From assembly GCA_951406725.2 (NCBI GenBank), contig OX597827.1, forward strand, positions 42,656,001 through 42,720,000: a stretch of 64,000 bases of DNA. Direction: 5' to 3'. Of the stretch, positions 9,944 through 55,047 are shown piece after piece (positions within the stretch are counted from its first letter, which is position 1; each line of letters starts with the position of its first letter). The position numbers were made by a program, and so were the translations under genes. The notes beneath the pieces were generated by a model. It did no database searches and was not told the origin of the DNA. It worked only from the letters and a program-made list of their open reading frames with translations. The DNA is from Octopus vulgaris. Taxonomy: Eukaryota.

Positions 9944-9993
9944 TTAACCATATATATAAACATATATATATATATACACACACACACACATAT

Positions 9994-10370
<377 letters not shown>

Positions 10371-10455: not shown

Positions 10456-11250
10456 TCTCTCTCTCTCTCTCACTTTTACTTGATCTGTCCCCTTCTCTCT
10501 CTTTTCTCTCTACTCATCCTCTTTTTCTCTTCTCTTTCCTTTGATTCTTTGGTCTACTCTTCCCCTACCCTTCCATTTCTTTGTCTCGCTTTGCACTCAC
10601 AGGTCAATCTTCGACACCCATCCCTTCTCGTCTCTGATTCCTTCTTTCTCTCTCTTCTCTCCCCTTGTTGCGTTTGTCCCTCCTCTCTCTCTCTCTTCTC
10701 TCTCTCTCTTCCTTCCTTTGCTTCTCTTTCTTTTCTTTTCTCTCTTCTCTGTCACGTGACCGCTGGCCGAAATCTGTCTCTCAGCTTCCGACTAGCGACG
10801 TGTTAACATCGTTGTTTTTCGTCGGCCGCCAAGGCATCGCCGATAAGGCTCCTTTCCAAAATGCGCCAGAGAAAATTTGTTTGCTTGTTATCAGTCGTAA
10901 GACACTTGTTGTTTTCACCGTTAATGCTTCTGTATTTCATGTTTCTCTATTCCATTATTGTTTTTTGCCTTTTATATTCGTCCTTTTTGCTGTCCCGGTG
11001 TTCGTATGCATTCGATCCTTCTTCCAGGAAATCTACGCTCCCAGCTTAGTTTTTCTAATGCTCGTTGCTTGGTTTCTCTTGGAGGGCTGGCCGGATCTAG
11101 TAATCAGCCGAAATTACTACGATGATCCGGTTCTTGACTGAAGACTGAGGGTTTCGAATGTCCTGTCCGTGTTTATTGTGTCGTCTTCTAAGAGTTATAC
11201 GTTCTTGTCCATGTTGTATTTTTCTACATACCTTAATATATATATATATG

Positions 11251-11306
<56 letters not shown>

Positions 11307-11320
11307 CATTTTAATATTTC

Positions 11321-11372
<52 letters not shown>

Positions 11373-11670
11373 CAACAATTGAGGGTAAAATTAATTAATT
11401 AATCAATTTCACCAAGTATTCAGTATACAAAGGGACCATTTAAGGCGAATTCAAATTATTACATTATATAAAAGGGCTTAGTAAAATAAATTACTTTGCC
11501 GCATACTGAACTCATTAGAAATAGCAGCTAGAAAGGGGAGAGCAGAAATTCTTCGTTTGCATATTTGAATTTGCTAACACTGTTAGTTTTGAACAGATCT
11601 TCAGAAGCGATAACAGGCCGAAAGGGTATGTTCCCGCTTTCAGTGTTTTCAAATCCAAACCAGGGAGTTC

Positions 11671-11722
11671 TGAGCTGATGATAGAAGTGTCGACTTGACT
11701 AATCTTGAAACGTACGTTCTCA
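11671..11722 (+). ncRNA. Type I hammerhead ribozyme, copy 1
   Basis: TGAG-CTGATGA-[stem II 11682-11706]-GAAA-CGTACGT-T-CTCA: canonical CUGAUGA/GAAA core, palindromic stem III ACGTACGT, stem I TGAG/CTCA; predicted cleavage after 11718. Confidence 0.7.
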
Positions 11723-12227
11723 AATAACCTTTGCATTTGATTTTTTAATGTCTCTACCCTCATACTTTCGTGAGTTGAATTGAGCAAACACTATACGAGA
11801 GAGATTTTCTTTAAGTATTGGAGATAGTTTTAAAAAAGTTGTTTTAGCTGCTATTTCTAATGAGTTCAGTATGCGGCAAAGTAATTTATTTTACTAAGCC
11901 CTTTTATATAATGTAATAATTTGAATTCGCCTTAAATGTCCCTTTGTATACTGAATACTTGGTGAAATTGATTAATTAATTAATTTTACCCTCAATTGTT
12001 GAAATTATAATTCATCTCTCTCTATATAATGCCTCGGATTTTACCGAAAAAAAGCATAATGTTTGCTGATTTTAACCCACGCTGGTGGAAAGGGGAGAGC
12101 AGAAATTCTTCGTTTGCATATTTGAATTTGCTAACACTGTTAGTTTTGAACAGATCTTCAGAAGCGATAACAGGCCGAAAGGGTATGTTCCCGCTTTCAG
12201 TGTTTTCAAATCCAAACCAGGGAGTTC

Positions 12228-12279
12228 TGAGCTGATGATAGAAGTGTCGACTTGACTAATCTTGAAACGTACGTTCTCA
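12228..12279 (+). ncRNA. Type I hammerhead ribozyme, copy 2
   Basis: Identical to 11671-11722, offset by 557 bp. Confidence 0.7.
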
Positions 12280-12461
12280 AATAACCTTTGCATTTGATTT
12301 TTTAATGTCTCTACCCTCATACTTTCGTGAGTTGAATTGAGCAAACACTATACGAGAGAGATTTTCTTTAAGTATTGGAGATAGTTTTAAAAAAGTTTTT
12401 TTAGCTGTTATTTCTAATGAGTTCAGTATGCGGCAAAGTAATTTATTTTACTAAGCCCTTT

Positions 12462-12522
<61 letters not shown>

Positions 12523-14668: not shown

Positions 14669-15412
14669 GGTGGCGTGCTGGCAGAGTCGTTAGCACACCC
14701 GGCAAAATGCTCAGCGGCATTTCATCTGTCTGTAAATTCTGAGTTCAAAGTCCGCTGAATTCAAATTTAACCTTTCGACCTTTTGTGGTCGATAAAATAA
14801 GAACCAGTTGAACACCTGGGTTGATATATTGGATTTGCCCTTTCTCCCAAAACTGCTGGCCCTGTGCCAAAATTTAAAACCAGCTGAGCAGCAGGGTCAA
14901 TGTATTCCCTTTGCCCTTTTCCCCGAAACTGCTGGCCTTGTTCCAAGATTTAAAACAAGTTGAGCAACAGGGTCAACGTATCTGATTTTCCCTTTCTCCC
15001 GAAACTGCTGGCTCTGTGCCAAAATTTAAAACCAGTTGAGCAACAGGGTCAACGAATTCGCTTTGCCCTTTCTTCCGTAACTGCTGGCCCTGTGCCAAAA
15101 TTTATATCCAGCTGAGCAACAGGGTCAACGTATTCACCTTGCCCTTTATCCCGAAACTGCTGGCCTTGTGCCAAACTTTAAATCCAGCTGAGCAACAGGG
15201 TCAACGTATTCACATTGCCCTTTCTCCCAAAACTGCTGGCTTTGTGCCAAAATGTAAAACCAGTTGAGCAGCAGGGTCAACGTATCCGATTTGACCTTTC
15301 TCCCGAAACTGCTGGCCCTGTGCCAAAACTTAAAACCAGTTGAGTAACAGGGTCAACGTATTCGATTTGCAATTTCTCCCGAAACTGCTAGCCCTGCGTC
15401 AAATTTTGAAAG
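14669..15412 (+). repeat. SINE family A whose 3' 76 bp is amplified into an 8-copy minisatellite
   Basis: ctgctg/agc anchors at 14853, 14929, 15005, 15081, 15157, 15233, 15309 and 15385 (exact 76-bp period). Confidence 0.9.
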
Positions 15413-27121: not shown

Positions 27122-27729
27122 GTGGCGAGCTAGCAGAAACGTTAGCACGCCGGGCGAAATGCGTAGCGGTATTTCGTCTGCCGTTACGTTGTGAGTTCAA
27201 ATTCCGCCGAGGTCGACTTTGCCTTTCATCCTTTCGGGGTCGATAAATTAAGTACCAGTTACGCACTGGAGTCGATGTAATCGACTTAATACCTATGTCT
27301 GTCCTTGTTTGTCCCCTCTATGTTTAACCCCTTGTGGGTAATAAAGAAATAGGTATTTCGTCTGTCGCTACGTTCAAATTCCGCCGAGGTCGACTTTGCC
27401 TTTCATCCTTTCGGGGTCGATTAAATAAGTACCAGTTACGCTCTGGGGTCGATATAATCGACTTAATCCGTTTGTCTGACCTTGTTTGTCCCCTCTATGC
27501 TTAGCCTCTTGAGGGCAATAAAGAAATAAGAATCATTAGCACGCCGGGCGAAATACTTAGCGGCATTTCGTCTGTCTTTACGTTCTGAGTTCAAATTCCA
27601 TCGAGGTCGATATTGTCTTTCATCCTTTCGGGGTCAATAAATTAAGTACCAGTTGCGTACTTGGCTCGATCTCAATCGACTGGCCATTTCCCCAAAATTT
27701 CGGGCCTTGTGCCCAGGGTAGAAAAGAAT
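27122..27729 (+). mobile_element. SINE family A (three core repeats) with 16-bp TSD
   Basis: TSD tatgcattgtcttagg at 27106-27121 and 27730-27745. Confidence 0.9.
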
Positions 27730-27922: not shown

Positions 27923-28968
27923 CTTATGTATCCCAAAATATTCGAATTGAGAGTCTAAAGAAGTAGCCTACTAGATTGGTTGTTTGTGATAATACACAGA
28001 TAGAATATATATATATATGTATATATATATTCTATCTGTGTATTATCGCAAACAACCAATCTAGTAGGCTTTTGGTTGTTTGCGATAATACACAGATAGA
28101 ATATATATATACATATATCTCTCTCTATATAAACGGCAGTTTGTCTGTGCGTGTTTCTGTGTGTCTGTTTTCTCGTACCCTCACTCTGACCACGGCTTTC
28201 AACCGATTCTGATGAAACTTGACACACACATAGCCCAATGTCATAATTCAAAACTAACGCAGCGAAAATTTTGAAAAGTTCCCCCAGTTCTGAAAAAAAA
28301 TCGATAAATTCGACATGGGGTCGAGAATGAGAAACCCAAACCACAGACCGTCTAGGGGACGCAACTCCACCTGTTTTAACTCTCAAAAAAATTTACCATC
28401 ATTTTTTTCCCATTTTTTTGCTATTTTTTGGCTATAACTCTCTAAAAATGCTTTATAGTTATTTCCCTTACAAACCTGAGCAACGCCGGGCGATACTGCT
28501 ATCTCTCTCTATATAAACGGCAGTTTGTCTGTGCGTGTTTCTGTGTGTCTGTTTTCTCGTACCCTCACTCTGACCACGGCTTTCAACCGATTCTGATGAA
28601 ACTTGACACACACATAGCCCAATGTCATAATTCAAAACTAACGCAGCGAAAATTTTGAAAAGTTCCCCCAGTTCTGAAAAAAATCGATAAATTCGACATG
28701 GGGTCGAGAATGAGAAACCCAAACCACAGACCGTCTAGGGGACGCAACTCCACCTGTTTTAACTCTCAAAAAAAATTTACCATCATTTTTTTTCTATTTT
28801 TTGGCTATAACTCTCTAAAAATGCTTTATAGTTATTTCCCTTACAAACCTGAGCAACGCCGGGCGATACTGCTAGTATATATATATTCTATCTGTGTATT
28901 ATCGCAAACAACCAATCTAGTAGGCTACTTCTTCAGACTCTCAATTCGAATATTTTGGGACACATAAG
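27923..28968. repeat. Nested inverted-repeat element around (TA)n, hosting a Helitron dimer
   Basis: 27923-28010 is the reverse complement of 28880-28968; partial inverted and direct copies at 28027-28070 and 28071-28110. Confidence 0.8.
28118..28875 (+). mobile_element. Head-to-tail dimer of a non-autonomous Helitron
   Basis: 5' TC start after A (28118 and 28502); 3' GC-rich hairpin cctgagcaacgccggg followed by CTAG at 28872-28875, then T; no TSD; period 384. Confidence 0.8.
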
Positions 28969-38705: not shown

Positions 38706-40415
38706 CACTTGCGTCGGAAATTAATTAGCACTTCTCAAATTTCTACATTTTCTTACATTTTCTTAATTTAATTAACTTATTATCAGAAACAAACTCGTTT
38801 TTAATCAAAAATTTATTAAAACATATCCCAGCACATCACATAATTGTTATTAATCGTGAAATTTAGTCAATATCTTGTTGCTCCTCTTTTGGCAGCAATG
38901 ACAGCTGCTACGCGGGTCGGCATGCTGTCTATGAGTGCCTGCAGGTACTGTGCAGGGATGGCCCCCCATGCAGCAAGAAGTGCCCCAAACAACTTGTGTC
39001 GGTTCCTGTATTGTTGCACACTCAAATCCCTACCCAATCGACTCCAGAGGTTCTCAATAGGGTTCAGGTCAGGTGACTGGCCAGGCCAGTCCATGACCGT
39101 CACCCCATGGTCCTTGAAGAAACCGGTTGTGAGCTTGGCTGTGTGGGAAGGCGCGTTGTCCTGCTGGAGCAGTACTCCTCGCCCCCAAAGAGGTATCCCG
39201 TACTATCTCAACGTACTTTGCTGCGTTGATGTTGCCTTCGACGGCATAGAACCGCCAAACACCACTGTAGCTGAACGCCCCTCACACCATCAGACCACCC
39301 CCACCTTGCTTCATGGTGGGAGCAATGCAGTCTTTGTTGAAGCGCTCATCCCTGCGGCGTCGCACATGGACAGGCTTGTCACTGACGAGACTGAATCGCG
39401 ACTCGTCAGTGAACATCACTGTCCGCCACTGCTGCACGGTCCATGTCTTGTGGGCACGGGCCCAGAGCAGCCGCCTCTTCCGGTTTTGGGCTGTAAGGAG
39501 CAGCTTACGGGTGGCCCTACAGGATTTTAGACCAGCTTCCAGTAATCTGGTCTTGACGGTGGTTGTAGACAACTGCTTCCCTGTCATCTTTTGCATCTCC
39601 TCCGCCAGTTGCCGGCTCGTTACCCTTCGGTTGTACAGTGACTTTCGGATCAGCATCCGGTCCTCCCGCTGGGTCGTCAGCCTCTTTCGTCCCCTACCCT
39701 TTTTGTCAGCTGCTGATCCGGTTTCCTCGTATTTCTGAAATAAGCACTGAATTGTGCGCCTGGCTACACCAAGTTTTCTGGCTATTGCAACCTCCGACAG
39801 CTTCCCACGCCACGAGAGAGCCTTGTACCGTCTCTCCAAGGTCATGCGAGGTCTTGGGCCCATCTAGGAATGAACGATAAAAACCAGTTATTTTCATTAA
39901 AACTATTCATTTGAATAATGTTATGCTATAACAAAACTGCTATGAGTTATTATTCATTAAACAAAGAAGAAAGAAAGCAGAATTTCTCACCTTATTTGAT
40001 GTATAACAGAAAGTTTTGTGAACTGGAAGTGACGTCACCAAGCAGAGTGTAGGAGAATTTGTGAGGGAAAAAAATCTTGCAAATACACAAATCAATTAAC
40101 CTACGAGCTGTTCAAAACGTCTTACGCGATGAGAAAACTTAGTACGGTGTGATTTCGGTCCTTGCGAGGTGCTACCTATATCTATTAAACAAAGGAAGAT
40201 TTGTCTGCATCCACACTCCAAGTTGTTGTTGCACTGCTATGTCAACATCATTAGGCTGTAGACTCTCAAACCGCTCTGCAAACAAAGTTACGTCATCGTT
40301 CTGCGCAACAGTGAACTCGCAACAAAGCAATAGTTCGAGATATGGCCACTAGGTGGCAGCAAATACCTTGAGTGAAGAGCAAATCAAGGGTGCTAATTAA
40401 TTTCTGACGGTAGTG
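38706..40415 (-). mobile_element. Tc1-family DNA transposon, 1710 bp
   Basis: 26-bp TIRs cacttgcgtcggaaattaattagcac / cactaccgtcagaaattaattagcac (reverse complement; 23/26); TA TSDs at 38704-38705 and 40416-40417. Confidence 0.95.
38867..39863 (-). pseudogene. Tc1 DD34E transposase, inactivated
   Basis: HTH, GRGRKR linker, FTDESRF (D1), QQDNAPSH (D2) and SPDLNPIENLW (E, with 34 residues between D2 and E); premature TGA at 39282-39284 (LMV*G, expected W) and a frameshifting deletion near 39190. Confidence 0.92.
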
Positions 40416-53808: not shown

Positions 53809-53910
53809 GAGTAAACACATAAATGTGAAACAAGGTGGAAAAAAAGAGTACTCAAATACCAGAGGTAGAGTAATATGCTTTATTTAAAAGCAGCAGAAAT
53901 TTAACAAAAG

Positions 53911-53948
53911 CTGTTACTCGGAGTTTCATGTTCCCGTTCGTCGGACAG
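53911..53948 (-). ncRNA. Hammerhead motif, inverted copy
   Basis: Reverse complement of 54085-54122 with two substitutions in stem-loop II (one a stem mismatch). Confidence 0.6.
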
Positions 53949-54084
53949 TTTTCCCTTCAATGTATAGGGTATCAATGTACAAGGTTTCATTTATGCGCTT
54001 TGTTTTAATTTCAGTTAGTGATCGGTGACCATGCTGGAGCACTGTCGTTTATTAGATCAATCTCAGTATTTTTTTTTAACAAAA

Positions 54085-54122
54085 CTGTCCGACGAACGGG
54101 TACGTGAAACTCCGAGTAACAG
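54085..54122 (+). ncRNA. Type I hammerhead ribozyme (U4C)
   Basis: CTGT-CCGACGA-ACG ggta CGT-GAAA-CTCCGAGT-A-ACAG; all three stems pair; cleavage triplet GUA ending at 54118. Confidence 0.75.
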
Positions 54123-54154
54123 CTTTTGTTAAGTTTCTGCTGCTTTTAAATAAA

Positions 54155-54205
<51 letters not shown>

Positions 54206-54288
54206 GGTCCCGGGTTGATTCGGGGTTAACCACAGTAAATAAGGTACTCAATACATAGCAGAGTAAAATTAATTTATTATATAGAAGG

Positions 54289-54339
54289 AGCTTCTACAGG
54301 ACTAGAACTGTTTCATTCAAGAGAAATCTTCAGGAAGCT
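54289..54339 (-). ncRNA. Type I hammerhead ribozyme, inverted copy
   Basis: Exact reverse complement of 54597-54647. Confidence 0.7.
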
Positions 54340-54596
54340 AGTTAACAAGAATTGTATTGGCATTTATACATTTAGGCAGGTTTAAAGGGGTGTTGGTGGG
54401 GGACTTTTTTGGGGTAGGCATAGCGCAAAATATCATACTTGGGGTAGTGGTCAAGCTTCTATCTAATTTAACACTGACTCCTTGACCACTCCCCCAAGTA
54501 TGATATTTTGCGCTATGCCTACCCCCAAAAAGTCCCCCACCAACACCCCTTTAAACCTGCCTAAATGTATAAATGCCAATACAATTCTTGTTAACT

Positions 54597-54647
54597 AGCT
54601 TCCTGAAGATTTCTCTTGAATGAAACAGTTCTAGTCCTGTAGAAGCT
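54597..54647 (+). ncRNA. Type I hammerhead ribozyme
   Basis: AGCTTC-CTGAAGA-T TTC tctt GAA T-GAAA-CAG ttctagtc CTGT-A-GAAGCT: 6-bp stem I, canonical core, GUA site ending at 54641. Confidence 0.75.
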
Positions 54648-54656
54648 CCTTCTATA

Positions 54657-54693
<37 letters not shown>

Positions 54694-54697
<4 letters not shown>

Positions 54698-54931
54698 CAC
54701 AAATAAGGGCAAACGAAAACATTTCCAATGCCAAATATGCCGAAAAATTGGACATATTGTCCATTAACCATATAATTTCTTTCACAATACGCACGCTACC
54801 CGAAAAAAGGTGGACCTTTTTTCGGGTAGCGTGCGTATTGTGAAAGAAATGATATGGTTAATGGACAATATGTCCAATTTTTCGGGATATTTGGCATTGG
54901 AAATTTTTTCGTTTGCCCTTATTTGTGAATT
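54694..54931. repeat. Near-perfect 238-bp palindrome
   Basis: 118-bp arms (3 mismatches) around a 2-nt centre at 54812-54813. Confidence 0.9.
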
Positions 54932-55047
54932 GTTTATAATTTTGACCTTTAGAGGTGTTTTTTAGTATGCTGGCCATTGATAAAATTGTTTTTTTGGAAA
55001 AGAATTTTTTTCGAAAAAAAATTTATCTTACATTTATATATATATAT

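Follow-up and report, generated by a model that had tools for sequence, protein, structure and literature searches.

What kind of element is the hammerhead-bearing insertion at 11236-12519 of the 64-kb window (the whole stretch of DNA analysed), and from what kind of RNA template was it copied? A preliminary description had offered two readings, i.e., a longer-than-unit cDNA of a circular 557-nt RNA (a retrozyme) or a pair of Penelope pseudo-LTRs. Leaving the question of the template aside, we consider the locus to be, probably, an insertion of a high-copy, non-coding 557-bp non-LTR retrozyme that was mobilised in trans by a Penelope-like element (PLE). The earlier family call therefore held, but its two alternatives did not survive as alternatives: retrozymes have been treated as non-autonomous PLE derivatives (bioRxiv 10.64898/2026.07.22.740005), so that both amount to one and the same thing. 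Judged from its sequence, the locus likely represents a family that is new among the animal 'retrozymes' already known, and for which a circular RNA stage is possible.

Anatomy of the insertion and its hammerheads

The order and coordinates given in the preliminary description were confirmed by inspection of the sequence, a repeat finder and alignments: the insert runs from (TA)n through a 160-bp inverted arm and 1.69 head-to-tail units of 557 bp back into (TA)n (Table 1). What had been called a 557-bp tandem is indeed a repeat, but not one of two whole units, the sense part (11531-12469) measuring 939 nt i.e., 1.69 units. As had been claimed, the 382-bp direct repeats (11531-11912 and 12088-12469) are almost the same, with 380 of 382 positions identical and differences at 11841/12398 and 11851/12408; alignment of the insert's copies revealed three differences in all. 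The insertion is young. Positions 12004-12087 are found nowhere else in the insert, and local duplication of a shorter insert therefore cannot have yielded it; for the same reason the template was effectively longer than one unit. The inner junction (11530/11531) is blunt and without microhomology, and at each outer end only an AT is common to insert and microsatellite. The inverted arm extends ~92 nt beyond the point at which the right end stops, which corresponds to a PLE-type 'tail'. No further copy of the unit was present elsewhere in the 64-kb window.

Table 1. Features of the insertion and of related elements in the window
Feature	Position	Strand	Remarks
Left half of (TA)n target, imperfect	11236-11370	.	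last AT common with template (2-nt microhomology)
Inverted arm, 160 nt	11371-11530	-	reverse complement of 11845-12003 plus one extra base
Full 557-bp unit	11531-12087	+	34% GC, non-coding
Type I hammerhead 1	11671-11722	+	predicted cut after 11718
Predicted monomer between the two cut sites, 557 nt	11719-12275	+
Segment C, 175 bp	11913-12087	+	once in sense orientation
Partial second unit, 382 bp	12088-12469	+	pseudo-LTR in PLE terms
Type I hammerhead 2	12228-12279	+	identical to hammerhead 1; predicted cut after 12275
CCTTYTATATAAT at right end of insert	12457-12469	+	also 11900-11912 (+) and 11463-11475 (-)
Right half of (TA)n target	12470-12519	.	target-site duplication indistinguishable within microsatellite
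Third head-to-head pair, beside (TA)n	53878-53952 / 54081-54155		Hydra-like hammerhead, changed core
Second hammerhead element, head-to-head fold-back	54270-54666 (wider region 54203-54694)		unlike main unit; arms ~186 bp, 2 mismatches
CCTTYTATATAAT in second hammerhead element	54276-54288, 54648-54660		near (TA)n-facing ends

The earlier statement that the monomer holds no recognisable ORF was upheld. The longest stop-free frames of the circularised unit are 74 aa (+) and 91 aa (-), and Pfam returned zero matches for the five unit frames tested. By frames, Pfam and phmmer, the RT plus GIY-YIG ORF of an autonomous PLE is absent from the unit. A phmmer search with the longest sense frame retrieved a single match, P0001, which was rejected as a protein remnant: it is a 60-aa tandem-repeat ORF, and its E-value is inflated by the repeats.

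Two consecutive units each carry a complete type I hammerhead, in which CUGANGA, GAAA and UH are present, stems I-III follow the type I order and stem I closes over the cut site. The cores CUGAUGA and GAAA lie at 11675 and 11707 in the first copy and at 12232 and 12264 in the second, with the GUU triplet ending at 11718 and 12275, respectively. In hammerhead 1, stem I pairs 11671-4 with 11719-22 and is extended by 11661-9/11726-33; the core comprises CUGAUGA (11675-81), U·U (11682/11706) and GAAA (11707-10); stem II is formed by AGA/UCU and GUC/GAC, and stem III is palindromic. Stem I thus measures 4 bp before a bulge, and stem III 2-3 bp in the monomer. When the unit was dinucleotide-shuffled 20,000 times, the type I descriptor never matched, and 60 block-shuffled windows yielded one site. 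Of the 'canonical hammerheads' described previously, the CUGAUGA/GAAA core and the palindromic stem III stand; the word canonical does not, since U10.1·U11.1 opens stem II in place of the canonical G10.1-C11.1 pair and Rfam reported no hammerhead, whether at the gathering score or with E relaxed to 10. Weak Rfam matches were discounted as hairpin or AT artefacts. When contigs were scanned with the hammerhead pattern, metagenomes gave 10 matches, all of which lacked stem I pairing and resembled the unit in nothing but the pattern itself, and the viral and genome contigs gave zero matches each.

Folding of the motif alone gave probabilities of 0.66-0.83 for stems I and II and 0.05 for stem III, and in longer contexts the probability of stem I was 0.04-0.21. 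The stem III palindrome is 10 nt long, AACGUACGUU, with an imperfect extension to 19 nt that is predicted to allow an inactive duplex as well. In dimer folding the palindromes paired at 0.99; the pairing, however, is that of an extended duplex, which is inactive and buries GAAA. A double hammerhead lay 8-9 kcal/mol above this duplex and two single hammerheads 17-18 above, in a folding model that leaves out core and tertiary contacts. As the double hammerhead is nearer to the extended duplex than two single ones, the model favours the dimer route over the monomer route and makes slow cleavage likely. Cleavage as a dimer, which the preliminary description had proposed, is thus plausible and partly borne out by predicted folding. 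For axolotl HHR_Amex2, which also has the U·U and a small helix III, 22% of the monomer was cut in an hour and the dimer was cut much better (PMC7229834); eight of nine Xenopus dimers showed no cleavage in vitro (bioRxiv 10.64898/2026.07.22.740005). The predicted 557-nt monomer folds better than its shuffles, with z of -5.7 when linear and about -5.0 when circular.

The unit as a repeat family

Part of the unit is contained in 20 of the 24 sequencing runs listed, and contigs were compared with the unit in four of those 20, i.e., X1, X2, X3 and X8, of which X1 could be the source sample itself. Matching contigs numbered 3765 in X1 and 2524 in X8, both DNA-type runs and carrying two organism labels. 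All 30 bins of the unit were covered in each of the four runs, and the junction 12087->11531 was recovered from every one of them (8, 1, 1 and 5 contigs). Its presence in all four runs implies that family-wide the units are arranged head to tail or in a circle, and its occurrence in independent runs that the tandem unit was not created by assembly. Of the doubts that the preliminary description had raised against itself, that of a single-copy sequence fails on these copy numbers and on the recurrent junction, and the tandem unit stands against that of an artefact of assembly, an outcome that applies to the family and not to the locus's own junctions. Summed contig depth drops after 12024, although contig depth cannot rank parts of the unit. 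Two other opposite-strand fold-back joints were seen in X8, in one contig each, and one X3 contig passes from the unit into (TA)n at 11992, near the end of the arm.

Sequence variation within the family (40 of 72 variant rows) bears on the origin of the insert. Among the variants listed, the common core change falls on the free position N7 (T11679A), and G11663A and C11691T preserve base pairs; the core-weakening A11710G was found in one X3 contig, close to the locus variant, and in one X8 contig. The insert's copies have several family-rare letters in common, e.g., T11947 in the arm and the unit, and those at 11631, 11636, 11694 and 11823 in both direct repeats. As arm, unit and repeats share them, the whole insert goes back to a single template variant. 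At 11841 the family has T, at 11938 the extra G, and both differences are therefore private to the middle copy.

The runs X2 and X3 stem from two studies, and their RNA nature is a guess; their contigs, 97-99% like the unit, cover all of it, the cut site included. A second variant of the unit makes up 36-57% of the depth in X2 and X3 and <1% in X1 and X8 (e.g., T11649C, G11782A); in this variant 71 other letters replace 11531-11618, and N7 is changed. These proportions hint at selective transcription, at the level of the family rather than of the locus and with the RNA nature of X2 and X3 being a guess. X3 also shows 24 T>C places as against 7-8 in the other runs, a pattern that could stem from editing of an antisense copy.

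Retrozymes and their link to PLEs are already published, so that the family is new but the kind is not. No paper on octopus or cephalopod retrozymes was found in the published work searched, which excluded the supplements of PMC7229834 and of the preprint. The words 'ribozyme' and 'retrozyme' are absent from the 2026 O. vulgaris repeat paper, and the 5 kb of text from the supplement of PMC13282606 contained no match.

Mobilisation and the RNA template

Like animal non-LTR retrozymes (PMC7229834; bioRxiv 10.64898/2026.07.22.740005), the unit is a non-coding tandem with a GC content below 45% (here 34%) and a single type I hammerhead in each unit, two or more successive motifs being intact. With axolotl Rtz_353 / HHR_Amex2 it further shares a helix II that opens with U·U, a tetraloop-capped helix III of 2 bp and a strongly folded monomer. 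However, at 557 bp it is longer than the 170-400 nt given for invertebrates, while lying within the 51-972 bp of the 2026 sample, and the locus, known here from sequence, is a dispersed 1.69-unit insert with an inverted arm rather than an array. The likeness to Hydra-clade PLEs extends to the two direct repeats with an adjacent head-to-head inverted copy and a one-sided tail (PMC8557442; PMC3846280), the (TA)n target without visible duplication, and the hammerhead grammar CUGANGA-U ... U-GAAA with its U·U at stem II, short stem I and tiny stem III, which is that of 14 of 25 families (File S2 of PMC8557442, 26 rows with one family twice). Unlike these elements, the insert has no RT or GIY-YIG frame and only 175 bp between its repeats, and its hammerheads lie 194-287 nt from the 3' ends; PLE tails in print measure 30-40 nt, compared with ~92 nt here. 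No sequence match between Hydra-1_Obim and the unit was seen by eye. Chlamys PLEs such as MRC1 (PMC8557442) are likewise non-coding, with pseudo-LTRs and head-to-tail multi-copy insertions into microsatellites, but they are mostly without canonical hammerheads, target (CA)n or (C)n, and have partners known by common 3' ends; for the unit no partner was found. In its sequence characters, the locus fits both a non-LTR retrozyme and a PLE-mobilised element, and neither an autonomous PLE nor a Helitron.

The insert has the standard layout of PLE insertions, i.e., a partial tandem, an adjacent inverted truncated copy and a one-sided tail (PMC8557442, PMC3846280). Both of its flanks are (TA)n, as is the further end recovered from X3; Hydra-clade PLEs carry hammerheads and nearly all of them target (TA)n (PMC8557442). 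Pseudo-LTRs have been reported to act in trans (PMC3846280). With AT-rich DNA as substrate, a purified PLE protein nicks both strands and extends them; it initiates at two sites within the RNA and accepts unprocessed RNA, hammerhead cleavage not being required (PMC11167929).

In the mechanism that we propose, a tandem source locus would be transcribed into multimeric RNA, and a PLE protein, probably from a clade that bears hammerheads and targets (TA)n, such as Hydra, would cut both (TA)n strands. Hydra is our guess as to the clade of the partner, based on motif grammar and target. The right DNA end would prime inside the RNA 194 nt past the hammerhead, and 939 nt would be copied through two uncut hammerhead sites; the left DNA end would prime ~92 nt further along the unit, 160 nt would be copied, and a head-to-head join lacking microhomology would then link the two cDNAs. 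Cleavage by the hammerhead itself would likely be slow and occur mainly in the dimer, and the 557-nt monomers set free could be closed into circles by a host ligase. If the template was a linear RNA of ~2.1 units, the two cDNAs stay apart, with ~83 nt between them, gap and template length being good to about 3 nt (arm limits of 11842-12004 were used as against 11845-12003). A gap as small as 83 nt is expected by chance ~15% of the time, and the support that it lends is weak. Such a gap between two cDNAs resembles L1 twin priming. The autonomous partner was not found in our comparisons: by eye, the hammerhead and 3' end of Hydra-1_Obim are unlike the unit, phmmer gave only P0001, and four short motifs had no match in the supplement of Craig et al. 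2021 (PMC8557442), where line breaks can hide matches.

As for the template, an uncleaved tandem transcript explains the insert at least as well as a circular RNA and is favoured, with somewhat better than even chances; a circle is the lesser yet serious contender, and jumping between cut monomers is quite unlikely. That the same element and machinery used a circular 557-nt monomer, around which the reverse transcriptase rolled for 1.69 turns, is a tentative alternative. Two passes over one circle would give near-identical direct repeats with common family-rare letters, and the polarisable differences (11841, 11938) are private changes by the family-majority letters. Animal retrozymes accumulate as circles, and the route has been proposed in print (PMC7229834, PMC4209133). 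Contigs of the two runs guessed to be RNA cover the cut site along with the rest of the unit, and the monomer is predicted to fold strongly. However, a young dimeric or multimeric source locus would give equal identity, and the contigs fit circle and tandem transcript alike. On one circle the arm (unit positions ~315-473) overlaps the site of the other primer (382), so that two circles or heavy strand displacement would be required. Moreover, the PLE protein prefers unprocessed RNA in vitro, and PAc yielded no reads with an end at the cut site (PMC11167929). The formation of partial tandems with inverted arms in PLEs, and circles as intermediates, are posed as open questions (PMC8557442, PMC11167929, PMC7229834). 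The locus offers a clean test case, i.e., a young single insertion in which all junctions are readable, with family variation from thousands of contigs, and young copies of the family could decide by computation both the question of the circle and that of how PLE tandems and inverted arms form.

An autonomous PLE that underwent a one-off internal deletion, with 175 bp of its body left as a stump between two pseudo-LTRs, would explain why the layout is that of a full PLE minus its body. A short stretch of the sense frame just upstream of the hammerhead was also seen by eye to resemble the end of Hydra endonuclease domains. We consider this origin improbable, however: the junction that leads out of segment C into the next copy (C-to-B) occurs in all four runs under two organism labels, with all 30 bins covered, and neither Pfam nor phmmer gave a PLE match. 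The family's common letters at 11590 and 11593 abolish the protein likeness, and a Hydra C-terminal remnant was therefore rejected. The unit is likely to have descended from a PLE end, yet with an amplification history of its own.

Mobilisation of a retrozyme by a PLE is also to be set against rolling-circle spread at the DNA level, the repeat being of satellite or Helitron type and the hammerhead a dead passenger. Inactive folds predominate in the predictions, and 16 low-complexity nt (12014-12029) are common to the unit and to the start of the tandem at 28117 (BLAST E 0.058). Nevertheless, the unit has no CTAG 3' end or hairpin before the 16-nt stretch, unlike the element at 28 kb, and the TC start at the 5' end and the hairpin with CTRR end at the 3' end of Helitrons/Helentrons were not found. 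The hammerhead core is conserved except at N7, and the insert ends in internal AT microhomologies within (TA)n, accompanied by an inverted arm. Helitrons are not known to leave such ends, and we regard a repeat of this type as very improbable. Finally, that the assembly is at fault, or that a single insert was duplicated locally at the DNA level and its hammerhead arose by chance, is scarcely credible: microsatellite flanks and inverted repeats do trouble assemblers (PMC8557442), but the copies differ at three places, 12004-12087 is present once, the unit junction recurs in independent runs and 0 of 20,000 shuffles gave a hammerhead.

Other elements in the window and a candidate priming signal

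Two further hammerhead-bearing fold-backs lie at (TA)n in the window and lend support to mobilisation by a PLE (Table 1). In the second hammerhead element, type I motifs are found on both strands, at 54603 (+) and 54333 (-); their stem I measures 6 bp, their stem II has U·U, and a cut is predicted after 54641. Rfam returned no hammerhead match for this element either. Its left arm carries a 67-nt tail, and both of its ends lie in (TA)n. The third pair was seen by eye to agree with Hydra-2_aJap over 18 nt around stem III, and CCGACGA replaces CUGACGA in both arms, so that its hammerhead may be inactive or a core variant.

The motif CCTTYTATATAAT has five matches in the window, all of them within the main insert and the second hammerhead element, close to the 3' ends of both. 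Its score was reached by none of ~20,000 random 25-mers and by no other of 82 (TA)n flanks, and a second AT-rich 20-mer is also common to both hammerhead families (9 of 1000 shuffles). We regard CCTTYTATATAAT as a candidate priming signal, found after the fact; since the pattern was drawn from the same elements (n=2) and is partly target-like, it is only a lead. A bolder reading, which at present we think unlikely, is that the family is a still-active cephalopod retrozyme of very high copy number with an abundant 557-nt circle, in which both ends of a (TA)n break prime at or near CCTTYTATATAAT and the enzyme rolls round the circle, so that young insertions would be a direct record of the PLE reaction. 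Under this same reading, expression would come from a few source variants and CCTTYTATATAAT would be common to unrelated hammerhead families. If true, the locus would provide the first genomic evidence deciding between circular and linear templates for PLE-type tandem/inverted insertions, and a cis signal of PLE priming (CCTTYTATATAAT) would be named.

Several other repeats were observed in the window. The tandem at 28117-28876, which we take to resemble a non-autonomous Helitron, consists of two near-identical units of 385 and 375 bp that differ by indels only, without substitutions; the units start with TC and end with CTAG, and lie inside an inverted repeat (27923-28015 / 28876-28968). Its CTGATGA...GAAA fails the hammerhead descriptor. 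Adjoining the second hammerhead element is a 252-bp near-perfect palindrome (54687-54938; 95%), possibly a MITE or a fold-back. A broken LINE-like reverse transcriptase fragment in two frames was recognised by eye at ~9990-10230 (+), and the one frame of it that was scanned had no Pfam match at E 0.01. The minus strand at 39282-39863 encodes 193 aa from the N-terminal portion of a Tc1-type transposase (PF01498, E 5e-18). Tandem arrays at 14802-15411, 1055-1467 and 27195-27528 (76-bp x8; ~180-bp x2) derive from an abundant SINE-like repeat, of which the window holds many copies.
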